Notes: a model not told the origin generated them from the sequence alone. 31,006 bases of DNA from Gammaproteobacteria bacterium (GCA_050298595.1 JBNKUM010000005.1:1-31006); one strand, 5' to 3'; numbered from the stretch's first letter, positions 1-15,924 are shown. Numbers and translations: made by a program.

Positions 1-1071
1 AGTGACAACGACAGCATCAGCAATTTTGATGAAATGCTCAGTGGTGGAAGCGCACCGGTAGTGAGTTCGGTATCTCCTTTAGAGGGAGCGAGCGGAGTAT
101 TAGAAACCACGGCCATCACTGCCACCTTCGACGATCCAATGATCGCATCCACATTAACGACCTCCAGTTTTATGGTGACTGGTGCCAGTTCTGGTGAGGT
201 GAGTGGTACAGTTTCTTATGATAGCGTGACAAAAGTTGCGACCTTCACGCCTTCATCGGCACTTAATTACGCCGAAGTCTATACTGTAACGCTAGGTATG
301 ACAGTACAGAATAGTGCATCCATCGGTCTGGCCAGTGCAAAAAGCTGGAGTTTCACGGTCAAATCTGCTCCGGTTGTACAGGTGATCGATATCACCTTTA
401 CTCTGCCTCAGATGCTCTTACAATCCAGGCTGTCTGACACGGGTGCTACGACTGCTTATGTACAGGTCGATGGGGGATCACGTCAAGCGATGACACTGAC
501 CGGTTCAGCTGCCAGCATCCAGCTAAGCGGACTGACTCCAGGTACGCATCAGTTCACCGTTATTCTGGAGTACGCACTGACTTCAGATCCGCAAAACCCG
601 GTTACCCTGGTGGAATCTACCAAAAGTGTCAGCATCACCACAGGCAGTAATAGTATCAGCTTCGTTGACAGTGATTTTGATTTCAGCCTGTTTGACAGTG
701 ACAACGACAGCATCAGCAATTTTGATGAAATGCTGAGTGGTGGAAGCGCACCGGTAGTGAGTTCGGTATCTCCTTTAGAGGGAGCGAGCGGAGTATTAGA
801 AACCACGGCCATCACTGCCACCTTCGACGATCCAATGATCGCATCCACATTAACGACCTCCAGTTTTATCGTGACTGGTACCAGTTCTGGTGAGGTGAGT
901 GGTACAGTTTCTTATGATAGCGTGACAAAAGTTGCGACCTTCAGGCCTTCATCGGCACTTAATTACGCCGAAGTCTATACTGTAACGCTAAGTACGACAG
1001 TACAGAATAGTGCATCCATCGGTCTGGCCAGTGCAAAAAGCTGGAGTTTCACGGTCAAATCGGCTCCGGTT
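1..1071 (+). repeat. Intragenic tandem repeat, period 696 bp (copies 1-375 and 697-1071)
   Basis: Direct comparison of the two copies gives 7 mismatches in 375 bp (counted by eye). Confidence 0.95.
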
Positions 1072-3861
1072 ACGCAGGTTGGAAGCGTGTCCACTTTGAG
1101 CACTAGCTCTTCTCCGATCCTGGCATACAATGATGCCGGCGATGGTGTAGCAGTATGGATAGTTCAGGATGTCGGCTATTCTTTGAAGTATTCGATGTAT
1201 GACAGGAGCAGTGACACTTGGTCATCCGAAGCTTTACTGTCTTCAAGTGCCTTCTCAAATTTGATGGAGCCTCAACTCGTCAGTAACGGTGCAGGTTTTG
1301 CTCTGGTTTGGGAGGAGTCTGATGACGTAGAACACCAGCTCTACGGGAGTTTTTACGATGGCTCTAACTGGTCCACGCCGGTAATTATTGATACCGAAGT
1401 TGAAGCTGTGAACTCTCCTGTACTGGCATCCAACGGCACTGGATATGCCGTTACCTGGTATCAGAATATCGTTGGGGATAGCCGCATCTTTGCCAGTGTT
1501 TCAACCGATGCAACATCCTGGGGGGCTCCAGTTGTTATCGACAATGGACTATTGAATGCCAGGTATCCGAAAATAGTTTCCAATGGATCTGAATATGCTG
1601 TGGTTTGGCAAGAGGCTTTACCAGAAAGGATAGGTGTCAATATATATCATGAGGGCTGGGGTGTTGGTACTGCTATTTTGCTGGATGATGAAACCAGTAC
1701 ATATGGCTCTTATGGGTATGATATTGCTTCCAATGGATCGGGTTTCTCTGTGGTCTGGGGTAATAATAATAGTGTCTACAATCGAACTTATTACAACTCA
1801 GGAACATTCGGTTGGAGTCCCATCATCGAGATCAATGGTTCTATATCGCCAGCTTATCTGGGGGGGGCTTCAGATGGTCCAGTGTTCTCGATTGCCTCAA
1901 ATGGTACTGGGTACGCAACAATTTTTTCAGGTTTAGCCAATTCAATTAAGTATGCAGTCATTAATACTGCTGGTGATAGTAGCTGGGGTACACCTGCGGC
2001 ATTACAGCTGGAATCTAACTTCCATGAACCTGGAAATCCGATGATTGTCTCCAATGGCAATACCTATGCTGCGTTATGGCCGCAATACACTGACGCCTCC
2101 ACATTCGACTTATTCTCAAGCGTCTATGATGGTACTTCCTGGCCTATAGCTGCTGCTATTGATACGGGTGTCCGCTCGATTAAAGGGGGCTATAGCTTGG
2201 TAGGCAGTGGTTCTCAGTATATCGCTACATGGGCTAAACAGTTTGGAAATTCCACTAAGGTGTATGCCAAAGTTTATACGGAAACCTCTCCTCAAAACGA
2301 ATGGGGTCAGGTTCAAGCCCTTGATACGGGGTCTCAAAATGTCACTCCTCCTACTATTAAAGCGCGCCCAAACGGTGGAGCAACTGTTTCCTGGAGCCAG
2401 CTTGACTTAGGTGTGTTTGCTAACACTTTTAATAGCTCAAACTGGTCTGGTGAACGCTTACTTGCCAGTGCTCCGGGCGGTAGTAGTCTTTCTTCCAGGC
2501 TGTTCAGTAATGGACATGGTCAGACATTGGCCGTGTGGAAGCAGAAATCTAGTAACAACTATGACCTGTATGTAAATATCAGCAAAAATGGCATCTGGGG
2601 TCAACCGCAGCTCCTGTTTTCCGGTTCCGATCAAATAGAGTTTTATGTTACGACTGATGGCATCGGTTTCGCCATGGTCTGGAACGATTATGATGGTGCT
2701 TATTGGTCTATATATGCGAGTATTTTTGATGGTATCCAATGGGGGGCGGTTACGGAGGTTGATGATAGCTCGATCGCAGGTCATGCGTACACTGGTGGTA
2801 GGTTTTCACCCATAGTCTCAAATGGTAATGGCTATATGCTGGTTTATAGCCAGTATGATGGCAGTAATTACTATGACACCTATGCCCGTCAATATAAGGG
2901 GTCAGGCTGGAAAGCGCCGGTAGTTTTGAATTCACATAGGAACAGCTCAAATGTCAGCGTAACTCCTTCAATTGCAACCAATGGTATGACTTATCTCGCT
3001 GTCTGGGTTCTCAGGTCGAGCATTACGCTACCCTCAACAGAGGCGTATTCTAGTGAGTTTGATGGTACCAGCTGGTCTGATGCAGAGCGTTTTATCAATG
3101 GCGGTTCCAGCAATGATATTAGCGCTTCGATTATAGGACTGGTTTCTAATGGTGCGGATTATCTCGCTGTGTGGGCACAGGATGATGGAACATCGCAGTA
3201 TCGAGCGTTAAGTAATTTCTATGCTGCTGGTAGCTGGGGCACAGCTTCAACCCTGGATACAGGAACAACCGGGCATCAGCTTACTACGCCATCAGCGATA
3301 TCAAATGGTACGGGTTATGCGGTCGTATGGGATGAGCATACAGGGACAGCGGATAGTGTAGTGGTCAATATCTACAACGGCACGAGTTGGCTAGGTCCAG
3401 TTACTTTAGATGACGGGGCGTCTGGTTCTGTTCATCTGTCATATTTTCCCAGGGACTTTATCTCTAGCTATGCGGATAGCTATGCAGTGACCTGGTCGCG
3501 GGATGATGGTACTGGAGTGCTTAATCCCTTTGTTAGTGTTTTCGACGGGACCTGGTCACCCGCCACAGCACTGGAAACGAATGCCGGAACTATCGACTAT
3601 CTGCAGATCGCTAGCAATGGTAACGGATTCCTGGCTGCCTGGATTCAGCAGGACGATTCCGATATTCATCATGTTATGCAAAACCGTTATGATCCAGTCA
3701 ATGGCTGGAGTGGTTCGACAATACTGGACGCAGATCTCAATAATAGAGTTTTTGATTTATCGTTAATTGCTTCCCCGGATGTCTACCAGGCTATCTGGAC
3801 CCAGGCTGAACCCAGCGGCGATCCAATAGTGCGCTTCCCATGGGCCAGGATGGGCTTTTGA
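1..3861 (+). CDS. Large surface protein (5'-truncated): Big_5/SbsA-type Ig-like repeats, acidic Ca-binding-like motif, C-terminal multi-blade beta-propeller region
   Basis: Frame 1 is open from base 1 (SDNDSISNFDE precedes the ATG at 34), so the true start lies upstream of the window. 'APVVSSVSP..A.GV....AITATFDDPM...VSGTVSYD....ATFTPS..L.Y...YTVTL....SWSFT' is a Big_5-like Ig domain and occurs twice. FDSDNDSISNFDE resembles a DxDxD Ca-binding motif. The C-terminal ~920 aa are ~50-aa repeats with an SNGxG[YF]AVxW core. Confidence 0.8.
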   Translation, partial: SDNDSISNFDEMLSGGSAPVVSSVSPLEGASGVLETTAITATFDDPMIASTLTTSSFMVTGASSGEVSGTVSYDSVTKVATFTPSSALNYAEVYTVTLGMTVQNSASIGLASAKSWSFTVKSAPVVQVIDITFTLPQMLLQSRLSDTGATTAYVQVDGGSRQAMTLTGSAASIQLSGLTPGTHQFTVILEYALTSDPQNPVTLVESTKSVSITTGSNSISFVDSDFDFSLFDSDNDSISNFDEMLSGGSAPVVSSVSPLEGASGVLETTAITATFDDPMIASTLTTSSFIVTGTSSGEVSGTVSYDSVTKVATFRPSSALNYAEVYTVTLSTTVQNSASIGLASAKSWSFTVKSAPVTQVGSVSTLSTSSSPILAYNDAGDGVAVWIVQDVGYSLKYSMYDRSSDTWSSEALLSSSAFSNLMEPQLVSNGAGFALVWEESDDVEHQLYGSFYDGSNWSTPVIIDTEVEAVNSPVLASNGTGYAVTWYQNIVGDSRIFASVSTDATSWGAPVVIDNGLLNARYPKIVSNGSEYAVVWQEALPERIGVNIYHEGWGVGTAILLDDETSTYGSYGYDIASNGSGFSVVWGNNNSVYNRTYYNSGTFGWSPIIEINGSISPAYLGGASDGPVFSIASNGTGYATIFSGLANSIKYAVINTAGDSSWGTPAALQLESNFHEPGNPMIVSNGNTYAALWPQYTDASTFDLFSSVYDGTSWPIAAAIDTGVRSIKGGYSLVGSGSQYIATWAKQFGNSTKVYAKVYTETSPQNEWGQVQALDTGSQNVTPPTIKARPNGGATVSWSQLDLGVFANTFNSSNWSGERLLASAPGGSSLSSRLFSNGHGQTLAVWKQKSSNNYDLYVNISKNGIWGQPQLLFSGSDQIEFYVTTDGIGFAMVWNDYDGAYWSIYASIFDGIQWGAVTEVDDSSIAGHAYTGGRFSPIVSNGNGYMLVYSQYDGSNYYDTYARQYKGSGWKAPVVLNSHRNSSNVSVTPSIATNGMTYLAVWVLRSSITLPSTEAYSSEFDGTSWSDAERFINGGSSNDISASIIGLVSNGADYLAVWAQDDGTSQYRALSNFYAAGSWGTASTLDTGTTGHQLTTPSAISNGTGYAVVWDEHTGTADSVVVNIYNGTSWLGPVTLDDGASGSVHLSYFPRDFISSYADSYAVTWSRDDGTGVLNPFVSVFDGTWSPATALETNAGTIDYLQIASNGNGFLAAWIQQDDSDIHHVMQNRYDPVNGWSGSTILDADLNNRVFDLSLIASPDVYQAIWTQAEPSGDPIVRFPWARMGF

Positions 3862-3901
3862 TGCTGTTTTGTAATTGCATGATTGCTGATGGCCAAAAGT
3901 T

Positions 3902-6589
3902 ATGAATTCAATCGTTAACGATCTGCAACCCGGTTTTTCCATACTCTGGTACGAGATTAAATCTGTACTAGGTCGTGGCGGCTTTGGTATTACCTATCTG
4001 GCCACAGATAACAACCTGGGTCATCAGGTTGCCATCAAGGAATACCTGCCTCGCGATTTCGCTACGCGTAGTGGTGATAGCACGGTCCAGCCCGTTTCTA
4101 TTGAGCAAAGAGATCTGTTCGACTGGGGCCTTGAACGGTTTATGAGTGAAGCTCAGACACTGGCCAAGTTTAAACACCCCAATATCGTTCGTGTATCCAG
4201 TGTTTTCATGCATAACAACACGGGCTATATGGTGATGGATTACGAGCAGGGTGAAGTTCTCAGTCATGTTTATAGACGGAAAAAAAAGCTCACTCAGCAA
4301 GCGCTGGAAAACATCTATTATCCAATCATTCATGGCCTGTCATTAGTACATAAAGAAGGTTTTATACATCGTGATATCAAACCAGCTAACATTTATATTC
4401 GAGCGGATGGTTCACCGGTATTAATTGATTTTGGAGCGGCAAGACAGCCGGTAGGAACCAGAACGGAAAAGTTAACTACGATGCTTTCCGTTGGCTATGC
4501 TCCCTTTGAACAGTACAATGAGACGCCGGGAAAGCAGGGATCGTGGAGCGATATCTATGCGCTAGGTGCAAGCATGTATCAGGGAGTTACCGGAGAAAAA
4601 CCTGTAGAATCAAGCATACGTGGAATAGGCCTGTTGCACAATGAGGCTGATCCATATGAACCTCTGTCCGTAGTATCCAGATCGGCTGGATATAGCCGCT
4701 CATTTTTACGAGCAATTGATCAGGCATTGATGATGCAGATTCAGGATCGCCCGCAGACATTGAATGAGTTTTTAGCAATGTTGAAAGGTGACATCGCTTT
4801 GCCTGATTTGTCAGGTGATGTCGCTTTACCAGATTTGTCAGGCAGGTCGTTAACAGACAAGGAACCTTCCATTGGGTCGTTAGGTGGTATCGCTTTGCCT
4901 GATTTGTCAGATGGGGCGTTAACAGAGATTGAACCAACCATGATTCTCGAAAAGGCAGTCATCAGCCCGAGGAATCATAAATTTTCTGGAATGGTGGCAA
5001 AGCGGCCTGGTCCAGTAACCCGTACAGCAGCGGACGAGCGTACTGCAAAGAAGTCTCTATTCAGTCAGCCAGGAATTCGGATCATTACAGTAATGGTTGT
5101 AGCTATTGTATTGGCTTTTTTACCTTTGCGGTTGCCGTTGCCTGATCAGATATTTGAGCAAGATACAGCGCAGCAGAAAATTCGAACCTTATTTGAAAAA
5201 GCTGAAAATCAAATTCAAGCCGGGCTGTATTATGACAAATCTGGTGAGGGTGCATTAAATGCTTACCAGAAAATTCTTAGCATTGATGAACAAAATTCGG
5301 CAGCCAAAAAAGGTATAAATCAAGTTGGGCTTCTGCTATTGAAACAAGCTCAGCAATCTTTGGATAACAAAGACCTGGCCAGCACGGATAAAGAGTTAAG
5401 AATAATTAGTCAATTTGTTCCTATGTTAAACGGGTTGTCCGAAACCCAGCAAAAGTTTAAGCACCTTCTGAGTAGTGAAAAGCAAATAGAAGTCCTTCTG
5501 GGCAAGGCTGACATTGCGCTGGGCAAAGGACAGGTTTATGAACCAGAGCAGGAAAATGCAATTTTCTATTACCAGAATGTAATCCAGCTGGATCAGAATA
5601 ATGTTACTGCCAGGCTTGGATTATCTGATATTTCAGACAAGTTGATCATTGATGCACAAAGCGAGATAGCCGGAAAGCACTTTAAGAATGCAGAAAAGCT
5701 GATATCTCTTGTTGAAACTATTAAGCCCGAAAGTCCTTCAATTAAAAATTTGCGAGAGAAGGTTAAAAGGTCTAATCAGCTGGAACACCTGCTGGCCAAG
5801 GCGGATACGGCTTATAAGCAACATCACTACCTTGTACCAGAAAATGACAATGCCTATCTGTTTTATAAAAAAGTATTAATCCTGAAGCCTTCGAACTTAA
5901 TTGCGCGAGATCGACTTTCTGAAGTGGCTGACCTGTATGCAGCTAAGGTGAACAAAAACATACAAACTGGTGACATAACTGAAGCAAAGAGAAATCTGGC
6001 TGTTCTGGATAAGTATTTTCCAGACTATTCAGGATTGTCTGATTTAAAATCCGGTTTGGCAAGAATGGAAACCAGGATAAAGAATGCAGAAAAAGCTTAT
6101 CAAAACCTGGCGGTAGATAATACATCTCTTGCGACAGGAAATAACCCGGCACAGGATAAATTTCAGAATCAACCCTGGATAACGGATGCAGAAAAAGCTA
6201 ATCTAAATCTAGCTACAGCTAATACATTTCTTCCGCCAGGAATTAACCAGAAACAGGATGACTTTCAGGTCGTTCAGGATATTGTTGGACAGTTTATGGA
6301 GTCATTCAGATCCATGGATATGCGGGGCTTGTTAAAAGTTTCACGACTAACAGATCAGCAGCATGCGCTTTATTCCGAGATATTTAAGTCCTACGAATCT
6401 TTGAGAATCACTGTGGTACCTAATACTTTTAAGCTGATGAAAGAACATGGTACGGGTCGTGTTGAGTTTGAAGTTAGCGACCTGGTTGATGTTAAAGGAC
6501 GTCCTGTTAGTACAGCTGCTGGCTGGACGAAAATAGAAATTAAGATAACAAGAAAAAATGATAACTGGCTAAAGGTTGAAATTTTATGA
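3902..6589 (+). CDS. Membrane-anchored Hanks-type Ser/Thr protein kinase with extracytoplasmic TPR-like repeats
   Basis: Kinase motifs LGRGGFG, VAIKE, HRDIKPANI, DFG, GYAPFEQ and SDIYALG. One TM segment (IITVMVVAIVLAFLPL). Three helical repeats 'A..YQ.IL.[IL]D..N..A..G' and a C-terminal alpha/beta domain. Confidence 0.93.
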   Translation: MNSIVNDLQPGFSILWYEIKSVLGRGGFGITYLATDNNLGHQVAIKEYLPRDFATRSGDSTVQPVSIEQRDLFDWGLERFMSEAQTLAKFKHPNIVRVSSVFMHNNTGYMVMDYEQGEVLSHVYRRKKKLTQQALENIYYPIIHGLSLVHKEGFIHRDIKPANIYIRADGSPVLIDFGAARQPVGTRTEKLTTMLSVGYAPFEQYNETPGKQGSWSDIYALGASMYQGVTGEKPVESSIRGIGLLHNEADPYEPLSVVSRSAGYSRSFLRAIDQALMMQIQDRPQTLNEFLAMLKGDIALPDLSGDVALPDLSGRSLTDKEPSIGSLGGIALPDLSDGALTEIEPTMILEKAVISPRNHKFSGMVAKRPGPVTRTAADERTAKKSLFSQPGIRIITVMVVAIVLAFLPLRLPLPDQIFEQDTAQQKIRTLFEKAENQIQAGLYYDKSGEGALNAYQKILSIDEQNSAAKKGINQVGLLLLKQAQQSLDNKDLASTDKELRIISQFVPMLNGLSETQQKFKHLLSSEKQIEVLLGKADIALGKGQVYEPEQENAIFYYQNVIQLDQNNVTARLGLSDISDKLIIDAQSEIAGKHFKNAEKLISLVETIKPESPSIKNLREKVKRSNQLEHLLAKADTAYKQHHYLVPENDNAYLFYKKVLILKPSNLIARDRLSEVADLYAAKVNKNIQTGDITEAKRNLAVLDKYFPDYSGLSDLKSGLARMETRIKNAEKAYQNLAVDNTSLATGNNPAQDKFQNQPWITDAEKANLNLATANTFLPPGINQKQDDFQVVQDIVGQFMESFRSMDMRGLLKVSRLTDQQHALYSEIFKSYESLRITVVPNTFKLMKEHGTGRVEFEVSDLVDVKGRPVSTAAGWTKIEIKITRKNDNWLKVEIL

Positions 6590-6665
6590 CGCTTACTTTA
6601 GCCCGCTATTGCCTGCTAGTTGTTTCAGTCGAACTAATACCCCGTCATAATGGAGAATATTGAGT

Positions 6666-7277
6666 ATGAAAAAAAATCTGATTCGTTGGTTTACCCTTAT
6701 ATTTTTTCTGCAAATTACTATACCTTCTGTATCAGCTGAGCAGTTAGAACTAAAAACTCCAGATATCGAACCACCAAAGATATTTTTTGATGTAAACATT
6801 GGTTTACTGGAGGAGGGGATACAAACTTTTTCAGTCACGGCTACCGATAATGTAGGTATTGCATCCGTCACCCTGTACTACAAAGGCGTTAATGATATCG
6901 CTTTTATACCGAGAAAAATGAAGCAGTCTACATCTGATCCGACGTTATACACGGCTGATGTATCTATCGATTCCGTAATATCCAATAAACTTGATGTTTA
7001 TATCCGTGCAGATGATGTATCGGGAAATAGCATTTTAGAAGGCCAGAAATTCTCGCCTTTTACATTTGCCATTATACCAAGAGATACATCAGAAAAAGTG
7101 GCTGATACTGTAACCGAGCCACCTGTTGAAGAAGAAGGGATGAGTATGTTCACCATGATACTGATTGGTGTCGGAGTACTTGCCCTGGTTGGAAGTGGCG
7201 GCGGTGGCGGTGGTGGAAGTAGTTCAAGTGATAATACTGGATCTATAACCATTACGTCTCCTATACCCGGTGAATAA
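6666..7277 (+). CDS. Exported hypothetical protein: signal peptide, Ig-like domain, C-terminal hydrophobic helix plus Gly/Ser tail
   Basis: MKKNLIRW...PSVSA-E signal peptide (ATG 6666 preferred over the track's TTG 6660). 'DIEPP...VTATDNVGIASVTLYY' Ig-like motif. Ends MILIGVGVLALVGSGGGGGGGSSSS. Confidence 0.8.
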   Translation: MKKNLIRWFTLIFFLQITIPSVSAEQLELKTPDIEPPKIFFDVNIGLLEEGIQTFSVTATDNVGIASVTLYYKGVNDIAFIPRKMKQSTSDPTLYTADVSIDSVISNKLDVYIRADDVSGNSILEGQKFSPFTFAIIPRDTSEKVADTVTEPPVEEEGMSMFTMILIGVGVLALVGSGGGGGGGSSSSDNTGSITITSPIPGE

Positions 7278-9163: not shown

Positions 9164-9410
9164 CAGGAAAGTTAAAATAAACCCACATTAGCTTTGTGGG
9201 AAATTCATTTTGAAAAAGGAGTAAAAATCTATTTTTTTAAATTTTGGGAATTATTTCCCTTTCACTTATCTTGATGTAAGACTAAAATCCTTCAGATTTG
9301 AATCATCAAACTTGCAGGGTTATGCCCCATCATGGCGCATAAATAGAAATGATTCGATTAATATACAAATAATTATCTATTAACATTTGCAGGGTGAAAG
9401 TGAGCTTATA

Positions 9411-12400
9411 ATGCTAGTAAAAGCGCTATCTAGAAAGTTATCAGGCTATTTTGTCACATTTTTGTTTATCGCAACAGTTGCTGGCTGTGGCGGTGGTGGT
9501 GACTCAACTGGAAAAACGCCAGAGTCTCCTATTCCTGGTAATACTGTTCTTATTGAAGCTAAAACTGCTGGTGGGGTTATGTCTGCCAGGGTAAATGAAA
9601 CGGTATATCTAGACGGCAGTAAATCCTATATTTCATCTAATCAACCTAGCTTTACTTCAACGAATGCTGGACTTATTTACAGCTGGTCATTTTCTCATGT
9701 TCCTGAGGGTAGTGCTGCTACTTTAGAGGGTGCAACGAGTGTTAACTCAAGTTTTGTAGCTGATGTTGCAGGTGATTACCTTGTTCAACTTATCGTTTCT
9801 GCAAATGGATATACCAGTAAACGTACTGTACAACTCATTGTTGCCACAGAAGCAGGCGATAGATTTCCGGTTGGCCCTTATTCGGGGCATCTGGGGCTAT
9901 CTTCAAATTGTGAACAGTGCCATATGGGCAATAAAACATTTGTTGATGTGAATGGGGTTATTAAAACGATAAGGGGTAAGTCGGCTACTCATGTTGCAAC
10001 CTCTCAACTTTGCGAAACCTGCCATACAACCAGAGGTTTTGCTATTCCGGTTAAAACCGATCATGCCGAAGTTTTTGGGAACTGTAGTGAATGTCATGAT
10101 GGTGTAAAGGCTACTGGTAAATCTGAGTTCCATCAGGTTACCCAGCTCGATTGTAATCAGTGCCACAATACCATCAGCTTTTTGGAGCTAAACCCTGATG
10201 GCACTTATGATCATTCAAATATAACTCGCGCCTGCGCGGGTTGTCATGATGGTAAGATTGCCAGGGGTAAGCATGATACGCATATAGATACCGTAACCGA
10301 TTGCGGATTCTGCCACACCACTGTCGATTTTAAGAACGCCTATCCTGACCATACTGGCCCAGAGGTGGTTGGAAAAGCATGTGCTAGTTGCCATAACGGT
10401 ACAGATGCGAAAGATAGTGCCGGTTTTCATCCAGATATGAGCGTAGATTGCGCGGTCTGTCATACAGTGATCAAGTTCAATTCTGGCGGCGTTTTCGATC
10501 ACACAGTTATTGGTGTAAATCCATTTCTGCCAGCCTGTTCAGAATGTCACGCTGTGAGTAATAACATTGGTGCGATCGGTAAGTCTGTAAATCATCCAGT
10601 TACTTCTGATGTCTGTAGCGATTGCCATAACACGGTATCTTTTGCTGACGTGACAAATTTTGATCATGGCACGCTAGCCTCTGGTAAGCGCTGTGATGAT
10701 TGCCATGGAAATACAACTGCAGTAACTCCAGATATCCCCGCTAGTGGCTTATCGGCTAACCATATTGCCACGAATGGCACTGATTGCGGTGTTTGCCACA
10801 CACCAGGAACTTTTACCACTGGTATTTTTGATCACGCTACAATCGGTACAGCCAGGTGTGATTCCTGTCATGACGGAAGTATCAGCAAAGGCGTTTCACT
10901 TCATCATATACCGACTAATGGTGCGGATTGTAATGGCTGTCATGGTAATACAGACAGTTTTGCTACTGCAGTTGTAATGGATCATGCTCTGGTTGATGTC
11001 AGTGTCTGTAGCGCCTGTCATGATGGCGATATCAGTTCCGGTAAGCCCAATAATCACGTGCCCACAAAGGCGCTGGATTGCAAGGACTGTCATTATGATT
11101 TTGACTCCTTTGCGCTTACTACATTCGATCATGCTGCAATAGAAGCTAATGATTGTGCTTCCTGTCATGATGCCGGTTTCGCGACACCTAAATCGACAAA
11201 TCATATTCCTTCAGTGAGCGAGTGTAGTGTTTGCCATACTGATACCAGTGTAGGAGGATTCAAGAATAATAACTTTAGGGCAGCTGTGCATGACAGTCTG
11301 ACTACGGGTTGTGAAGGTTGCCATATAAGCACATTCTTCCCTGATAATTCGGCAGCGTATAAATCAGCGACTCATCTACCAACCACTCAGGATTGTTATC
11401 TGTGTCATAGTGCAGCGGCTGCTGATTTTACGACTTCAATATTCAGTCACCAGGGGATCTCTAGCAACTGTGTTTCCTGTCATAATGGTAGCGCGAATAA
11501 TGTGGCGGCAAATGCTGTGGGTGAGCCCAACGATTCCGTGCATACTGGAATCGATGGAGATTGTTCAATCTGTCACAATACTGTTGCATGGGCACCTCAG
11601 GATGTGGATCATACCCGATCAGACGTTTTGAGTGTGCGCTGTGATTCCTGTCATAACGGTAATTTCGAGCCGGGTATTCCGGGTAAAAATCAGGGCCATA
11701 CAGCCACTTCCAGCGATTGCTCGGTGTGTCATAAGACAACAACTTTTGTGGGTGGTATGGTTGACCATTCCAGCCCGCAGGTTACCAGTGTGCGTTGTGA
11801 TTCCTGTCATAACGGTACCGATGCGACTGGCGTTTCTGATCATCCAACCAACAAACATATTCCAACCACTGATGATTGCGGTGCCTGCCACAAAGCGGGA
11901 GGCTCTTTCAAGCCATCAACGTTTGCGCATGTAGGTGTGACGAATAATTGTGAGACTTGCCATAATGGTAATTTCGTTGACAGTGGTGCAGCAGGTAAAA
12001 ATGCTGGTCACGTGACGACGTCGAGTGATTGTTCCGTTTGTCATAATACCGAGGATTTTTCCGTAGCTCGGTTTGATCATAGTACCGTCTCTTCAACGAC
12101 CCGTTGCGACTCCTGTCATAACGGTACTACAGCTGCGGCAAAAGAACCGCCAGTGGGGCATGTACCGACTAACCAGGATTGCCGAGACTGTCACCAGACA
12201 ACGGGATTCAAGCCTGCTATTTTTGCCCATACAGGCATAGTTGATAATTGCTCATCCTGTCATGATGCGGGCTACGCAACTCCAAAGTCATCAGGACATA
12301 TTACTACCAGTCTGGATTGTGGTGTCTGTCATTCCGGTTTTGATACTTTCAAAGGTGCAACCTTTGATCACAGTACGGTCTCTTCAAGTACCCGATGTGA

Positions 12401-12929
12401 CTCCTGCCATGATGGTAGTACTGCGAAGGGTAAGGCTGATGCGGTACCTGCTCATTTGGCAACAAATCTGGATTGTCGTTCCTGTCATACCACGGCTACG
12501 TTTAAAGGCGGTACCTGGGAGCACGATGCATCTGCATCTGGGCGTTGCGACGAGTGTCACAGTAGCGGTAATGGAGCAACACCTAAATCATCGGGGCATA
12601 TTAATACCACCGCTCAATGTGATGATTGTCATACTACAAGTGGATGGGGGTTTGATCATCCTTTGTCAATCCCAGGGTTAGGTGGTAGTGGTCCATACAA
12701 CCCACTCGACCATCGGAAGCCCCTGAGCTGTACGGACTGCCATGGCAATACCATAACCCCCATCATTCCCAATAATGAATGGTCGAATACAAACTATAAG
12801 CCTTACTGCGCAGGTTGTCATGACCGTGACTATGATACGGGTGAGAGAAGGCATAGAGGCATCGATGCTGACAAAGATTGTTATGGTTCATGCCATGAGC
12901 ATAGGATCAGCAGTGGTGGATTCGACTAG
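9411..12929 (+). CDS. Giant multiheme c-type cytochrome lipoprotein (38 CXXCH + 1 CX3CH) with N-terminal PKD-like domain
   Basis: Lipoprotein signal ending VAG-C-GGGG (ATG 9411 is more plausible than TTG 9387). PKD-like 'VYLDGSKS...YSWSF...P.GS.ATL...SFVADVAGDYLVQLIVS'. Heme motifs counted manually in the translation. Confidence 0.93.
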   Translation: MLVKALSRKLSGYFVTFLFIATVAGCGGGGDSTGKTPESPIPGNTVLIEAKTAGGVMSARVNETVYLDGSKSYISSNQPSFTSTNAGLIYSWSFSHVPEGSAATLEGATSVNSSFVADVAGDYLVQLIVSANGYTSKRTVQLIVATEAGDRFPVGPYSGHLGLSSNCEQCHMGNKTFVDVNGVIKTIRGKSATHVATSQLCETCHTTRGFAIPVKTDHAEVFGNCSECHDGVKATGKSEFHQVTQLDCNQCHNTISFLELNPDGTYDHSNITRACAGCHDGKIARGKHDTHIDTVTDCGFCHTTVDFKNAYPDHTGPEVVGKACASCHNGTDAKDSAGFHPDMSVDCAVCHTVIKFNSGGVFDHTVIGVNPFLPACSECHAVSNNIGAIGKSVNHPVTSDVCSDCHNTVSFADVTNFDHGTLASGKRCDDCHGNTTAVTPDIPASGLSANHIATNGTDCGVCHTPGTFTTGIFDHATIGTARCDSCHDGSISKGVSLHHIPTNGADCNGCHGNTDSFATAVVMDHALVDVSVCSACHDGDISSGKPNNHVPTKALDCKDCHYDFDSFALTTFDHAAIEANDCASCHDAGFATPKSTNHIPSVSECSVCHTDTSVGGFKNNNFRAAVHDSLTTGCEGCHISTFFPDNSAAYKSATHLPTTQDCYLCHSAAAADFTTSIFSHQGISSNCVSCHNGSANNVAANAVGEPNDSVHTGIDGDCSICHNTVAWAPQDVDHTRSDVLSVRCDSCHNGNFEPGIPGKNQGHTATSSDCSVCHKTTTFVGGMVDHSSPQVTSVRCDSCHNGTDATGVSDHPTNKHIPTTDDCGACHKAGGSFKPSTFAHVGVTNNCETCHNGNFVDSGAAGKNAGHVTTSSDCSVCHNTEDFSVARFDHSTVSSTTRCDSCHNGTTAAAKEPPVGHVPTNQDCRDCHQTTGFKPAIFAHTGIVDNCSSCHDAGYATPKSSGHITTSLDCGVCHSGFDTFKGATFDHSTVSSSTRCDSCHDGSTAKGKADAVPAHLATNLDCRSCHTTATFKGGTWEHDASASGRCDECHSSGNGATPKSSGHINTTAQCDDCHTTSGWGFDHPLSIPGLGGSGPYNPLDHRKPLSCTDCHGNTITPIIPNNEWSNTNYKPYCAGCHDRDYDTGERRHRGIDADKDCYGSCHEHRISSGGFD

Positions 12930-13000
12930 TGTAGTGCTCTAAATTAAACTCGTATTAAGAAAGCGCAGTCAGGGGGGCGCAGCAAGGCGCAACTCGTAGG
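12927..13000 (+). repeat. Partial ERIC/Correia-like MITE arm
   Basis: Begins at the TAG stop of the cytochrome gene. Contains gcagCAAGGCGcaac (12983-12989), the same core as the elements at 16220 (reverse strand) and 17822. Confidence 0.4.
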
Positions 13001-13052
13001 TAGGAGTGATACAGGGATGCGCCGTTTACGAGGAAAGAGAGGCTTTCATGCA

Positions 13053-13283
13053 TCACACGAGGCGAGTCATCACTGGAAGCGCCATGGCATGGCTTGGGAT
13101 GCGAACGATAACATCGTCCCGATCCGACAGGATATGATGGCCTTTTTCACAGGCGCAAAAATAGAGTTGCAACAGGGTAGCCAGGTTCATCACCAGAAAA
13201 ATACTGGTAATCCACGCCACAGAGGTATCCGCACGCCTGGCCCGGATGTAATTCAGTCGATAGCTATTCTTGCCCTGGCCAAA
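13053..13283 (-). pseudogene. IS5-family transposase C-terminal remnant
   Basis: The minus strand reads *FGQGKNSYRLNYIRARRADTSVAWITSIFLVMNL. This matches the remembered IS5-type DDE C-terminus (EGKFGQGK.GY.L..I.A....TS..WI..I.LVMNL). An in-frame TAG sits at the expected Lys and no upstream portion is present. Confidence 0.75.
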
Positions 13284-13300
13284 CTATTCGGCCTAGAGTG

Positions 13301-13331
13301 TGGCTATCATCCATTATTAGGGTGATAGCCA
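13301..13331. other. 12-bp inverted repeat/hairpin at the edge of the IS remnant
   Basis: tggctatcatcc-attatta-gggtgatagcca (one G-U/mismatch). Confidence 0.6.
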
Positions 13332-13518
13332 GAATTTGATTCTTGTTGATAGGTCCTGGTTTAATCTGTTATTCTTCATCGCTGCTAGCGTAGGATGTGC
13401 TATTGTATAGACAATCCCCTGTGACCTTGCTCACTCATCATTTATAAAATAATATCTTCCAAAAGTTTTGCTTAAAAACTTTTAATTATTTACTATTTTC
13501 TTATCAGCTTATTAACTA

Positions 13519-15924
13519 TTGTCAGCTCAACTTGTTTTACTAATTGAGCGTGTTGTGAGTTTTTTTAAACCCAATAATTTTTTTCATCTTTTCATTCTTG
13601 TTTTGCTGTCATTCAGTTTGACTGCCTGTGGCGGCGGTTCTGGCGGCTCCGGCGGTACAGTAACTCCAGATGTCAGCCTCGATTCAATTCAAGTGATCCC
13701 ACAAAATGTAGAGCTTGCGAGTGGTGTGCAGCAGTCATTTCAGGCAATTGGTAATTATTCTGATGGCAGTACAAAGGATCTTAGCAAGCAGGTTGAGTGG
13801 CTAAGTAGCGATACTCAGGTTGCGCAAGTAACTGCGGCTGTCGCGGTGAGTAATGCGGCTGGCACAGCAACCATATCGGCTACATTGAATGGAGTGTCTG
13901 GTCAGGCTAGTTTGAGTGTGAATAGTGAGATACTCCAGAGCATTGAAATTATTGTGAATAATCCGAATCTACCGGTTGGCTTAAGCAGCTCAATAACTGT
14001 TCTGGGATTCTACAGCGATCAAACTATTAGAGATGTCACTGAGCTTGCTAGCTTGCAGGTTGATGACGCTTCGCTGGTATCGATTGATTCTACAACGGCT
14101 ATGGTTCAGGCGATTGCGATTGGTCATACGACTATTAGGGCAGACGTATCAGGTATTCAGGATGAAATGGCTCTGCAGGTGAATGACGCGGTACTCAGCA
14201 AGATAAAAATTTCACCTGAGAATTCTACTATTGCAGCCGGATATAAACAGCAATTTACTGCTACAGGCATCTACAATAATCAATCCTCCTGGGATTTGAC
14301 AGGGTTAGTAACCTGGGATTCCAGTGATGAGCTTATCGCTGAAGTAGACAATCAATTGCAGACGAAAGGAGAAGTAACTGCGATCAAAAAAGGTAGCGCG
14401 ATACTTTCGGCCCATTTTGACGAAAAGAGTGCATCCACCAATTTAATGGTGAACGATGCTACGTTAGTGAGTATCGAAGTGACACCGGCTAGTAGAACAG
14501 TCGCCGTGGGCTTACAGCTACAGTTTGAAGCTATTGCGCTGTATTCCGATGGATCACAGAAAGTAGTCACCGATCAGGTCGAGTGGAGTAGTGATAGTCA
14601 AATTGCATCTTTGGTCAGTAGCAATAACCCTGGCCGGTTCAAGACTAACAGTCCGGGCGATGTATTACTGATTGCGAAACTCAATAACAAGCAGGGGTTC
14701 ACCAACCTGAAGATTAGCGATGCTACGCTCGACAGCCTGAATGTAGTAGCTGTAACTGATAAGCAAGCATTGGGCACATCGCAAAAATTGACTGCCAACG
14801 CTAAATTTTCGGATGGTAGTGAGGTAGATGTGACTGATCAGGTGAGCTGGGTCAGTACGGATGCGACTGTAGCCCATGTGAGCAATGCAGCCGGTGACAG
14901 GGGGCTGGTTACAGCCCTGTCCACGGGTACGGTGAGTATTTCAGCACATATGGAATCGATATCATCCAGCCAGACGCTAGAGGTTACTGAAGGCATTTTG
15001 CAGCAGATTCAACTGTCTTCTTCCTCTGAGGATCCTTTATATATCAACCAGCAGCGATCTTTGGACGCTGTTGGGATCTATTCAGACGGTAGCCAGCAAA
15101 ATCTCACACAGCAGGTGCAGTGGATGAGTTCTGACGACCAAATTATTGCTGTGAGTACTGCCAGCGAATCGCCAGGTTTACTGACAGCTTTATCCGCTGG
15201 TTCAGCCAGCGTTAGCGCCAGTTTTGCCGGCGTTACCGCGAGCGAGCTGTCATTTCAGGTTATTGATAACCCAGATTATCCAGCATCGATTAGCCTGTCG
15301 GCGAGTCCGAATGTGATTCTCAATGATGGAGCAGATTCAACAACCCTGCAGGCTACAGTAAAGCCTTTGCAGACAAGTGGAGCTATCGAAGATGGTACTG
15401 TCGTAAATTTTATTATTCTGGAAAATGGAGTTACACGTAACGATACTGCGACTACGATTGATGGAGTTGCCAGTGTCAGGCTGACATCGGTAGACGTTGG
15501 GTCTATTCTCGTAACAGCCGAGGTTGTTGATACCGATATCAACGCAACAACCACTGTCAATAGTACCGACAACTTCGCCCGTGCCCTGCTGATAGGAAAG
15601 TCTGCCGAAGTCATTATGTCGAGTGATAAGTCTACCTATCAGCCCGGTAGCAAATTCTTTTTGTATTTGCGTAATCTGTCGAACAGGGACTTCAATATAC
15701 TGGCCTTTTTGGCCAGGCTTGACGGTGTTGATTTCCCCGACTCTCCTATAAAGGATGCTAGCTATCTGAGTGAAGGTGTACTGGAAGGCGGTGAGTATAC
15801 CAGTGCTGGGTATCAACTGGATCAAGTAGTTACAGCCGATAAAGTTATTAGTACTGGCTACATCCTGTCTGATTCGGCAACGAATAAAGTATTCTTTTTT
15901 ACAGTGGATTATACAGTGCCATAA
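13519..15924 (+). CDS. Ig-repeat surface lipoprotein: six Big_2 domains, one Big_1/invasin-like domain and a unique C-terminal domain
   Basis: Lipobox LTA-C-GGGSGGSGG. Six repeats of 'L.SI.V.P........QF.A.G.YSDGS..D[LV]T.QV.W.SSD..[IV]A.V'. Then 'ASISLSASPNVILNDGADSTTLQATV' (Big_1-like). Start uncertain (TTG 13519 or GTG near 13555). Confidence 0.9.
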   Translation: MSAQLVLLIERVVSFFKPNNFFHLFILVLLSFSLTACGGGSGGSGGTVTPDVSLDSIQVIPQNVELASGVQQSFQAIGNYSDGSTKDLSKQVEWLSSDTQVAQVTAAVAVSNAAGTATISATLNGVSGQASLSVNSEILQSIEIIVNNPNLPVGLSSSITVLGFYSDQTIRDVTELASLQVDDASLVSIDSTTAMVQAIAIGHTTIRADVSGIQDEMALQVNDAVLSKIKISPENSTIAAGYKQQFTATGIYNNQSSWDLTGLVTWDSSDELIAEVDNQLQTKGEVTAIKKGSAILSAHFDEKSASTNLMVNDATLVSIEVTPASRTVAVGLQLQFEAIALYSDGSQKVVTDQVEWSSDSQIASLVSSNNPGRFKTNSPGDVLLIAKLNNKQGFTNLKISDATLDSLNVVAVTDKQALGTSQKLTANAKFSDGSEVDVTDQVSWVSTDATVAHVSNAAGDRGLVTALSTGTVSISAHMESISSSQTLEVTEGILQQIQLSSSSEDPLYINQQRSLDAVGIYSDGSQQNLTQQVQWMSSDDQIIAVSTASESPGLLTALSAGSASVSASFAGVTASELSFQVIDNPDYPASISLSASPNVILNDGADSTTLQATVKPLQTSGAIEDGTVVNFIILENGVTRNDTATTIDGVASVRLTSVDVGSILVTAEVVDTDINATTTVNSTDNFARALLIGKSAEVIMSSDKSTYQPGSKFFLYLRNLSNRDFNILAFLARLDGVDFPDSPIKDASYLSEGVLEGGEYTSAGYQLDQVVTADKVISTGYILSDSATNKVFFFTVDYTVP

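Follow-up and report, generated by a model that had tools for sequence, protein, structure and literature searches.

Introduction

The giant multiheme cytochromes of PCC3 gene clusters are among the most heme-dense proteins known, and a 2025 AEM paper describes PCC3 function as experimentally unverified. Here we analyse a related protein of 1172 residues, a predicted lipoprotein with 39 heme-binding motifs, whose gene lies on a 31-kb contig of a gammaproteobacterial genome (GCA_050298595.1, JBNKUM010000005.1:1-31006). The entire contig of 31,006 nucleotides was analysed and is called the window; the genome is 5.49 Mb in size and 98.6% complete. An original prediction, made from the DNA sequence, had described the protein as a candidate single-chain surface electron wire. 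Sequence comparisons identify it as a relative of the PCC3 cytochromes with a predicted lipid anchor and a candidate second ligand for every heme.

PCC3 was defined by He et al. (2017, PMC5566968), who counted a median of 34 and a maximum of 85 heme sites in the extracellular cytochromes. These cytochromes have a low ratio of amino acids to hemes, are rich in T/S/A/G and contain internal repeats, and were proposed to act as molecular wires; their extracellular location comes from PSORTb and CELLO predictions only (He et al., 2017). Hoover et al. (2023, PMC10734462) described proteins of 10–35 hemes whose AlphaFold models are “long and mostly linear”, and suggested capacitor and long-range roles. 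Garber et al. (2024) catalogued many unnamed multiheme families, and a 2026 FEMS review does not mention PCC3. Full-text literature searches gave no description of a stand-alone subfamily of 36–39-heme lipoproteins with a PKD domain, although the supplementary tables of He et al. and Hoover et al. may list members.

The protein shares with the variable PCC3 cytochromes its tandem heme repeats, very few amino acids per heme, a T/S/A/G-rich composition, the same cap and aromatic tail, and the proposed wire or capacitor role. A lipobox, a Gly tether and a PKD-like domain set it apart from the cytochromes encoded within PCC3 clusters, as does the position of its gene, which is separate from those of the porin, the 21-heme cytochrome and the inner-membrane protein. 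Its family has 36–39 hemes or a doubled number and forms a separate clade, whereas the in-cluster cytochromes have 9–133.

Other described systems are less similar. MtrC and OmcA of Shewanella are lipid-anchored bis-His cytochromes that function with a porin-cytochrome core and depend on type II secretion. They have 10 hemes in a staggered cross and two β-barrel domains, whereas the present protein has 39 hemes in tandem and one PKD-like domain. Similarity to MtrC domains II/IV is weak (PF22113, E = 1e-17; PDB 6qyc, 6r2q_C and 4lm8, E ~2e-9), and the score against the OmcA/MtrC family TIGR03507 is 88.6 bits, under its cut-off of 209.3. MtrA/DmsE proteins, like ours, are heme chains with one distal His per CXXCH, and MtrA (6r2q chain A, E = 1e-9) is the best solved-structure match; by profile, the best solved relatives are MtrA and MtrC domains II/IV, at only E ~1e-9. 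The score against the DmsE/MtrA family TIGR03508 is 124.1 bits, again under the cut-off (192.2), and MtrA differs in being soluble, having 10 hemes and being threaded through MtrB. The c7 polymers (GSU1996-type) and triheme c7 proteins (PpcA-E) of Geobacter share the Cytochrome_C7/TIGR04257 domains and the concept of a single-chain heme wire, but structural matches of our model to 3ov0, 3oue and 3h4n are not significant (E above 1). The c7 polymers are soluble periplasmic proteins of 12 hemes, some of them with His-Met ligation, in contrast to our protein, which has only 6 Met. OmcS, OmcE and OmcZ provide a functional analogy only. They too have long chains of close-stacked extracellular bis-His hemes, arranged as non-covalent filaments of 4–8-heme subunits, whereas the protein described here would carry the whole chain on one lipid-tethered polypeptide.

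Heme array and predicted ligands

Homologues were collected from 5.8 billion proteins, giving at least 414 matches. Family counts given below refer to the best 120, which are the top scorers within a length window, a selection that favours full-length look-alikes; almost all of them are 1050–1270 residues long.

A script count found 38 CXXCH motifs and one CX3CH motif (CYGSCH at residue 1157), exactly as stated in the original prediction; there is no CX4-5CH and no CXXCK in the protein. Of its 79 cysteines, 78 lie within heme motifs and the remaining one is the lipobox residue Cys26. Shuffling the protein 2000 times gave a mean of 0.36 CXXCH and a maximum of 4. Adjacent motifs are spaced 23–37 residues apart, there are ~26 residues per heme, and the composition is rich in T/S/G/D/A. 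The predicted arrangement in ~50-residue diheme units was borne out: the heme units alternate between two types (similarity 1.56 at an offset of two units versus 0.67 at an offset of one), with an additional four-heme period in the second half of the array. Pfam recognises Cytochrome_C7 (PF14522) in 14 stretches (E = 1e-56, 189.1 bits against a cut-off of 24.8), and the TIGR04257 nanowire_3heme model scores 77.1 bits against a cut-off of 40. There are also weak, sub-threshold matches to the NrfH, HmcA and TmcA models.

The protein contains 83 His. In an alignment of 117 sequences (A1), the Cys and His of each family-wide CXXCH, together with one further His per heme, are invariant or at least 90% conserved. 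The columns of one extra diheme unit, which occurs only in the 39-heme subgroup, are not invariant in this alignment, while those of the flanking hemes are. Counting His711 and His734 of this insert, there are 39 candidate distal His for 39 hemes, in agreement with the earlier statement that the extra His suffice for bis-His ligation throughout. With one conserved candidate per heme and no CXXCK, the sequence describes an all-bis-His-capable chain and gives no sign of a catalytic high-spin site, a feature that would have contradicted the predicted wire.

The repeats end in a non-repetitive C-terminal cap carrying the last four hemes. Its terminal motif has a conserved position and a loop of variable length (CXnCH, n = 2–6): in the 120 family members it is CX3CH in 3, CX4CH in 79, CX5CH in 1 and CX6CH in 34, and the other 3 have nothing beyond CXXCH. 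Some in-cluster relatives lack the terminal CXnCH altogether. An aromatic residue is found within the last three positions in 118 of 119 proteins of the lipoprotein family, versus 24 of 29 variable PCC3 cytochromes.

N-terminal region

The precursor begins with a positively charged region (K4, R8 and K9), followed by the hydrophobic stretch GYFVTFLFIAT and then V-A-G-C26. It thus has the three features by which we recognised lipoproteins (Sec/SPII), namely a positive n-region, a hydrophobic core and a lipobox of the form [LVI][ASTVI][GAS]C in the first ~40 residues. A lipobox is found in 105–110 of the 120 family members, depending on the regular expression, and among 105 of these lipoboxes the +2 position is occupied by Gly in 80 cases, by Ser in 18 and by Asp in 2.

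The lipobox, the Cys-GGGG tether (V-A-G-C26-GGGG-D) and the PKD-like domain proposed originally were all recovered. The Pfam match of the domain to PF22352 (K319L-like; E = 5e-4, 20.4 bits) is under the gathering threshold of 27 bits, while the corresponding domain of a paralogue in the same genome (contig C74) scores 28.9 bits and exceeds it. Profile searches of the PDB match the PKD domains of AAVR/KIAA0319L (6nz0_Z and 2yrl, E = 5e-4). AlphaFold confidently predicts the domain as a β-sandwich, with a predicted local distance difference test score (pLDDT) of ~86–97, and the top Foldseek matches of the model are PKD domains (2yrl, E = 7.6e-6, TMt 0.74; 6ihb_R, TMt 0.81).

A Gly-rich tether, with at least two Gly at positions +2 to +5, is present in 18 of the 153 candidate lipoproteins in a scan of this genome alone, made with no control set. 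These 18 include Big_2, Big_7, He_PIG, DUF11, β-helix and fn3 proteins, as well as an S41 peptidase and LPP20. Many carry Ig-like, β-helix or fn3 domains, and the Gly-tethered lipoproteins of this genome may represent a class of surface lipoproteins.

Homology to PCC3 cytochromes

Another contig of the genome (C62) carries a cluster of four genes, encoding a 263-residue membrane protein, a 21-heme cytochrome, a 13-heme cytochrome and a 705-residue outer-membrane-type protein ending ...YTYQF. We identify this cluster as a PCC3-type core because its genes are in the PCC3 order and encode, besides a 21-heme cytochrome, a membrane protein with the two WX3HX13H motifs that typify PCC3 inner-membrane proteins in the definition of He et al. 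(2017). These motifs are located at residues 76 and 238 of the 263-residue protein, and both are present in 26 of 26 orthologues. In the 705-residue protein Pfam detects only N-terminal SPOR and TPR domains, and the outer-membrane barrel is putative.

BLASTP aligns residues 823–1172 of our protein end to end with residues 61–390 of the 13-heme cytochrome of this cluster (35% identity, E = 8e-49), in an alignment that spans the terminal CXnCH and the C-terminal tail. The protein also matches in-cluster cytochromes at loci L002–L007 and L017, and all six loci found with it in distant GTDB genomes (L002–L007) are orthologous PCC3 clusters. A further 20 PCC3 clusters were added to the comparison. 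The periplasmic PCC3 cytochrome has 21 hemes in 22 of 27 matches, 24 in three and 20 in one; the remaining row, with 34 hemes, is probably the variable cytochrome of L006. The second, variable cytochrome has from 9 to 133 CXXCH. None of 29 in-cluster variable cytochromes has a lipobox, in contrast to the lipoprotein family. The comparison with PCC3-type homologues envisaged by the original prediction thus identifies the protein, at the level of sequence, as a homologue of the PCC3 “extracellular” multiheme cytochromes, although its gene is not located in a PCC3 cluster, the core being on C62.

We note some further features of the PCC3 loci. In one related cluster, the inner-membrane protein and a 24-heme cytochrome are followed by a 4071-residue open reading frame (ORF) with 133 CXXCH (L059:3222-15437, +; G325:C17), which could be real or a repeat assembly artefact. 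Divergent from the PCC3 inner-membrane protein is a gene for a membrane-anchored oxidoreductase of the 2x[4Fe-4S] and FAD/NAD(P) type (L020:12427-15785, +), which is kept in six of the six distant loci (L002–L007); a neighbouring ankyrin/TPR protein is kept in five of the six. Together with the two-b-heme-type membrane protein, the oxidoreductase resembles a split NOX/ferric-reductase arrangement, which would suggest cytoplasmic NAD(P)H or ferredoxin as the electron source.

The lipoprotein family

The number of hemes is nearly fixed, or doubled, in the lipoprotein family. The heme-motif total is 36 in 27 members, 37 in 78 and 39 in 11, accounting for 116 of the best 120, with outliers of 35, 50, 73 and 74; matches found in genomes have 32–39 CXXCH or are doubled forms. 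Such constancy may point to a defined architecture or a fixed distance.

A quick maximum-likelihood tree built from the final 300 residues placed 24 of 25 lipoprotein-type rows in one long-branch group (100 in the Shimodaira–Hasegawa-like approximate likelihood ratio test, SH-aLRT), apart from 19 in-cluster rows. The outlier (P0100) has no lipobox and a very long branch. In this tree the lipoprotein and PKD form is a clade separate from the in-cluster PCC3 variable cytochromes, and its genes stand alone.

The genome itself carries two lipoprotein paralogues, with 37 CXXCH (contig C74) and 76 CXXCH (contig C91), plus further multiheme clusters. The 76-CXXCH paralogue (L018:7030-13335, −; G000) is 2101 residues long and consists of the N-terminal module and nearly two copies of the array, matching residues 9–1041 and then 186–724 and 763–1171 of our protein. 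Comparable forms of 2085–2121 residues occur in two other genomes (G011 and G013), and 73–74-heme forms occur among the database matches.

The last 300 residues of our protein group with this paralogue (SH-aLRT 95; 63% identity over residues 763–1171) and not with the 79–81%-identical orthologue P0002, whose C-terminal tail differs. Comparison of window positions 12400-12929 with L018 and P0002 suggests gene conversion between the paralogues. In the C74 paralogue (L019:5446-8736, +; G000) the conserved C-terminal tail is followed by an Asp/His-rich extension, ...DGDDDHDDHDDHDDDDDD, which might serve to bind metal; 1.3 kb upstream of this paralogue, the opposite strand carries a cytochrome b561-type gene.

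Co-occurrence with the PCC3 core, and the host

In a set of 41 relatives, all nine lipoprotein-type carriers have the PCC3 inner-membrane protein, which is present in 17 of the 41 overall. In an even sampling of the class (401 genomes), six of the seven that match the N-terminal module (residues 26–200) have the inner-membrane protein, versus 47 of 400 overall. Related genomes are not independent, and these numbers are counts and not a test. The two proteins are encoded on different contigs in G019, G067 and G205. There is a weak trend for the in-cluster cytochromes of lipoprotein carriers to be mostly short (five same-genus genomes have 13 hemes and two genomes have 9; the others have 19, 27+11 and 43), whereas those of non-carriers have 15 to 133 hemes.

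The host genome encodes the large subunit of RuBisCO, DsrA (622 bits) and SoxB (858 bits), which indicates a sulfur-oxidising autotroph. Cytochrome c maturation genes, the absence of which would have counted against the original prediction, are represented by CcmE (121 bits), and two GspD secretins score over the cut-off. A profile search of the genome for MtrB/PioB gave nothing over the cut-off, the best sub-threshold score being 19.8 bits.

Structure prediction

Full-length AlphaFold2 models have a mean pLDDT of 57.3 and a predicted TM-score (pTM) of 0.34, and the PKD domain alone is predicted confidently. A separate model of the C-terminal 350 residues has a mean pLDDT of 66.7 and a pTM of 0.38. 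With this model, Foldseek returned nothing at E ≤ 0.001, the best rows being GSU1996 and PpcD at E > 1, and VIA-align against 48,161 chains gave no Z ≥ 2; a single-sequence phmmer search against PDB chains gave 0 matches. The overall shape cannot be derived from these predictions because the heme-region models are of low confidence and have no structural match.

Proposed function and alternatives

We propose that the protein is a surface lipoprotein that conducts or stores electrons and exchanges them with the PCC3 core through its C-terminal cap, and we regard this reading as moderately probable. The precursor would be exported by Sec, lipidated at Cys26, loaded by Ccm with ~39 covalent bis-His hemes and sorted to the outer membrane via Lol. 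The array would then pass electrons from heme to heme along a single chain, and would store charge as well. A fully extended chain would be roughly 30–40 nm long, as scaled from the ~100 Å quoted by He et al. (2017) for the ten hemes of MtrA. Electron exchange with the only PCC3 core of the genome, on C62, would take place at the cap and tail. The partners in that core would be the b-heme-type inner-membrane protein, the 21-heme periplasmic cytochrome and the outer-membrane protein, while the PKD domain and lipid anchor would hold the opposite end of the chain at the outer membrane. The cell surface would be the most likely location, reached via type II secretion by analogy with MtrC/OmcA. In this way the redox-active surface of a sulfur-oxidising autotroph would be extended towards minerals, electrodes or partner cells. 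Electrons might flow in either direction, leaving the cell from sulfur oxidation for an external acceptor, or entering it from Fe(II), a mineral or a cathode.

Several observations weigh against this proposal. Proteobacterial outer-membrane lipoproteins face the periplasm by default, and a lipobox without Asp at +2 would argue for the outer membrane but not for either face of it. No porin, secretion or redox gene adjoins the cytochrome gene in the window or beside five distant family members. The link to PCC3 rests on homology and on co-occurrence in non-independent genomes, because no PCC3 gene is adjacent, and one genome (G274, 72% complete) has a family member with no detected PCC3 inner-membrane protein. 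The heme regions have a pLDDT of ~45–67 in the AlphaFold2 models, so that the extended shape is only hypothetical. Of all the observations, the near-constant heme number (36–39 in 117 of the best 120 matches) is the hardest to reconcile with a simple free-ended wire, for which it would not be expected. Finally, the proposed partner, PCC3, is itself described as functionally unverified in the 2025 AEM paper. Of the wire reading, the lipobox-bearing, bis-His-capable and PCC3-homologous chain stands, while elongated shape and surface exposure are hypothetical.

The main rival, which we consider quite possible though less probable than a surface conduit, is an inner-leaflet outer-membrane lipoprotein whose heme chain runs through or along the periplasm. 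Such a cable or bus bar would connect redox enzymes of the inner membrane, among them the PCC3 inner-membrane protein, to conduits in the outer membrane, and would buffer electrons. The residue at +2 is Gly or Ser in 98 of 105 lipoboxes, which points to sorting by Lol and hence by default to the periplasmic face, and no dedicated surface-lipoprotein translocator is encoded beside the gene, either in the window or at the loci of the five distant members. A fixed heme number would mirror a fixed envelope dimension, as the 21 hemes of the similarly constant PCC3 periplasmic cytochrome may do, in contrast to the wide range of the in-cluster variable cytochromes. On the other hand, PKD/Ig domains and Gly-rich tethers after the lipobox Cys are typical of surface proteins, 37–39 hemes at ~1 nm each would probably exceed the usual width of the periplasm, and the nearest relatives are PCC3 cytochromes predicted to be extracellular, albeit by localisation software only.

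A more specific version of the surface reading, which we put forward only tentatively and hold to be rather doubtful, takes the constant length literally. The protein would be a length-quantised cable of ~37 hemes (~35 nm), or a double of 74–76 hemes, with the cap and aromatic tail plugged into the PCC3 core and the PKD “foot” and lipid anchor pinning the far end to the outer membrane, so as to form surface arches or bus bars. If this were true, interchangeable outer modules (of 13, 37, 39 and 76 hemes in one genome) would serve one trans-envelope core, and uncultured sulfur-oxidising Gammaproteobacteria would trade electrons with minerals, electrodes or partners such as cable bacteria.

The quantised totals (36, 37 or 39 hemes in most members, the 73–74-heme outliers, and the near-complete array duplication with 76 CXXCH) would also suit a capacitor of defined architecture, in which the hemes are held in a fixed hairpin, ring or bundle and retain charge while the supply of donor or acceptor fluctuates. 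A capacitor role has already been suggested for PCC3 cytochromes (Hoover et al., 2023), but the models of PCC3 relatives published in the same paper are long and mostly linear. Moreover, the strict diheme and tetraheme periodicity and the few residues per heme leave little polypeptide for a globular scaffold. We therefore consider a compact capacitor improbable, while noting that wire and capacitor roles are not mutually exclusive. Least probable by far is a catalytic multiheme enzyme, such as a reductase or oxidase that binds its substrate at a high-spin heme, or else a gene without function: the non-canonical terminal CX3CH and the weak NrfH, HmcA and TmcA matches would fit, but 39 of 39 hemes have a conserved candidate sixth ligand with no CXXCK, there is no catalytic domain besides the PKD domain and c7-type repeats, some relatives do without the terminal motif, and the ORF is intact in same-genus orthologues.

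Returning to the surface conduit, the feature is real and well conserved, and the reading given in the original prediction is reasonable. The uniqueness that it implied does not hold, given the published 85-heme PCC3 cytochromes, the 37- and 76-heme paralogues in this genome and the 133-CXXCH ORF of a related cluster. A very long single-chain heme wire has already been published; what is new here is the lipid-anchored PKD variant and its testability, and not a new principle. The subfamily is a well-defined test object, with a single stand-alone gene, a checkable lipid anchor and a clear genomic partner in the PCC3 core, and the near-constancy of its heme number calls for an explanation in structural terms. 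Because the host joins RuBisCO, DsrA and SoxB with several giant cytochromes, the family may help to explain how sulfur oxidisers in sediments reach distant electron acceptors or donors.

Gene features and genomic context

The positions of the gene and of the features of its product are listed in Table 1. The intact ORF (9387..12929, +) opens at a TTG, and the ATG at 9411 yields the 1172-residue protein. The latter start is common to the orthologues, which likewise begin MLVKAL.... In five same-genus orthologues, with 59–81% identity, the reading frame is intact, with no stops.

Table 1. Positions in the window of the cytochrome gene, the features of its product and a nearby hairpin.
Feature	Position	Strand	Residues	Basis and remarks
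Whole gene, multiheme cytochrome c lipoprotein, stop codon included	9411..12929	+	1-1172	ORF scan, motif script
Signal peptide	9411..9485	+	1-25	Charged n-region, hydrophobic core and lipobox V-A-G before Cys26; read from sequence
Cys26 (predicted lipidated) and GGGG-D...P-rich flexible tether	9486..9542	+	26-44	Sequence; AlphaFold pLDDT <50 at residues 25-40
PKD/Ig-like β-sandwich	9543..9860	+	~45-150	Pfam, PDB profile, AlphaFold, Foldseek
Heme array, hemes 1-35, tandem ~50-residue diheme units with one conserved distal His after each CXXCH	9888..12617	+	His160 to just before Cys1070	Motifs, alignment, Pfam, TIGR04257
Extra diheme unit, CXXCH at Cys718 and Cys744 with His711 and His734	11508..11690	+		Only in the 39-heme subgroup (11/120)
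Non-repetitive C-terminal cap, hemes 36-39	12618..12926	+	1070-1172	Common to PCC3 in-cluster cytochromes; conserved in alignments A1 and A3
Terminal CX3CH (CYGSCH)	12879..12896	+	1157-1162	Motif count
Conserved extreme C-terminal tail E-H-R-I-S-S-G-G-F-D, aromatic residue near the end	12897..12926	+		Family comparison
Terminator-like hairpin, consensus match only	13301..13331	+		4 terminator-like sites found versus 4.0 expected; no evidence alone

The gene is separated from its neighbours by gaps of 248 nt upstream and 590 nt downstream, and looks monocistronic. A promoter scan gave a result not above chance (8 found versus 10 expected). In Pfam, the neighbouring genes correspond to AsnC, methionine gamma-lyase and a Big_2 lipoprotein. 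AsnC and methionine gamma-lyase are kept upstream in the same-genus orthologues, and five distant family members have unrelated flanking genes. We considered the Big_2 lipoprotein as a partner and rejected it: it keeps its place in L001, L009, L010 and L011 but is missing from the orthologous locus of G004 and from the distant loci.

Further upstream, positions 34-7277 (+) hold a row of three genes, encoding a Big_5 protein of more than 1275 residues, an 895-residue Ser/Thr kinase with TPR repeats and a 205-residue Big_7-like protein. We found no link between these genes and the cytochrome, and none of them occurs in the loci searched, though the orthologue loci except L001 extend only ~1.5 kb past the gene.

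The downstream gap (12930-13518) holds only an unsupported 102-residue ORF (13017-13325) and the hairpin of Table 1. Beyond it, the Big_2 lipoprotein (13519-15924, +) is 801 residues long and has five Big_2 domains, with a tether, Cys-GGGSGG, of the same type as that of the cytochrome.

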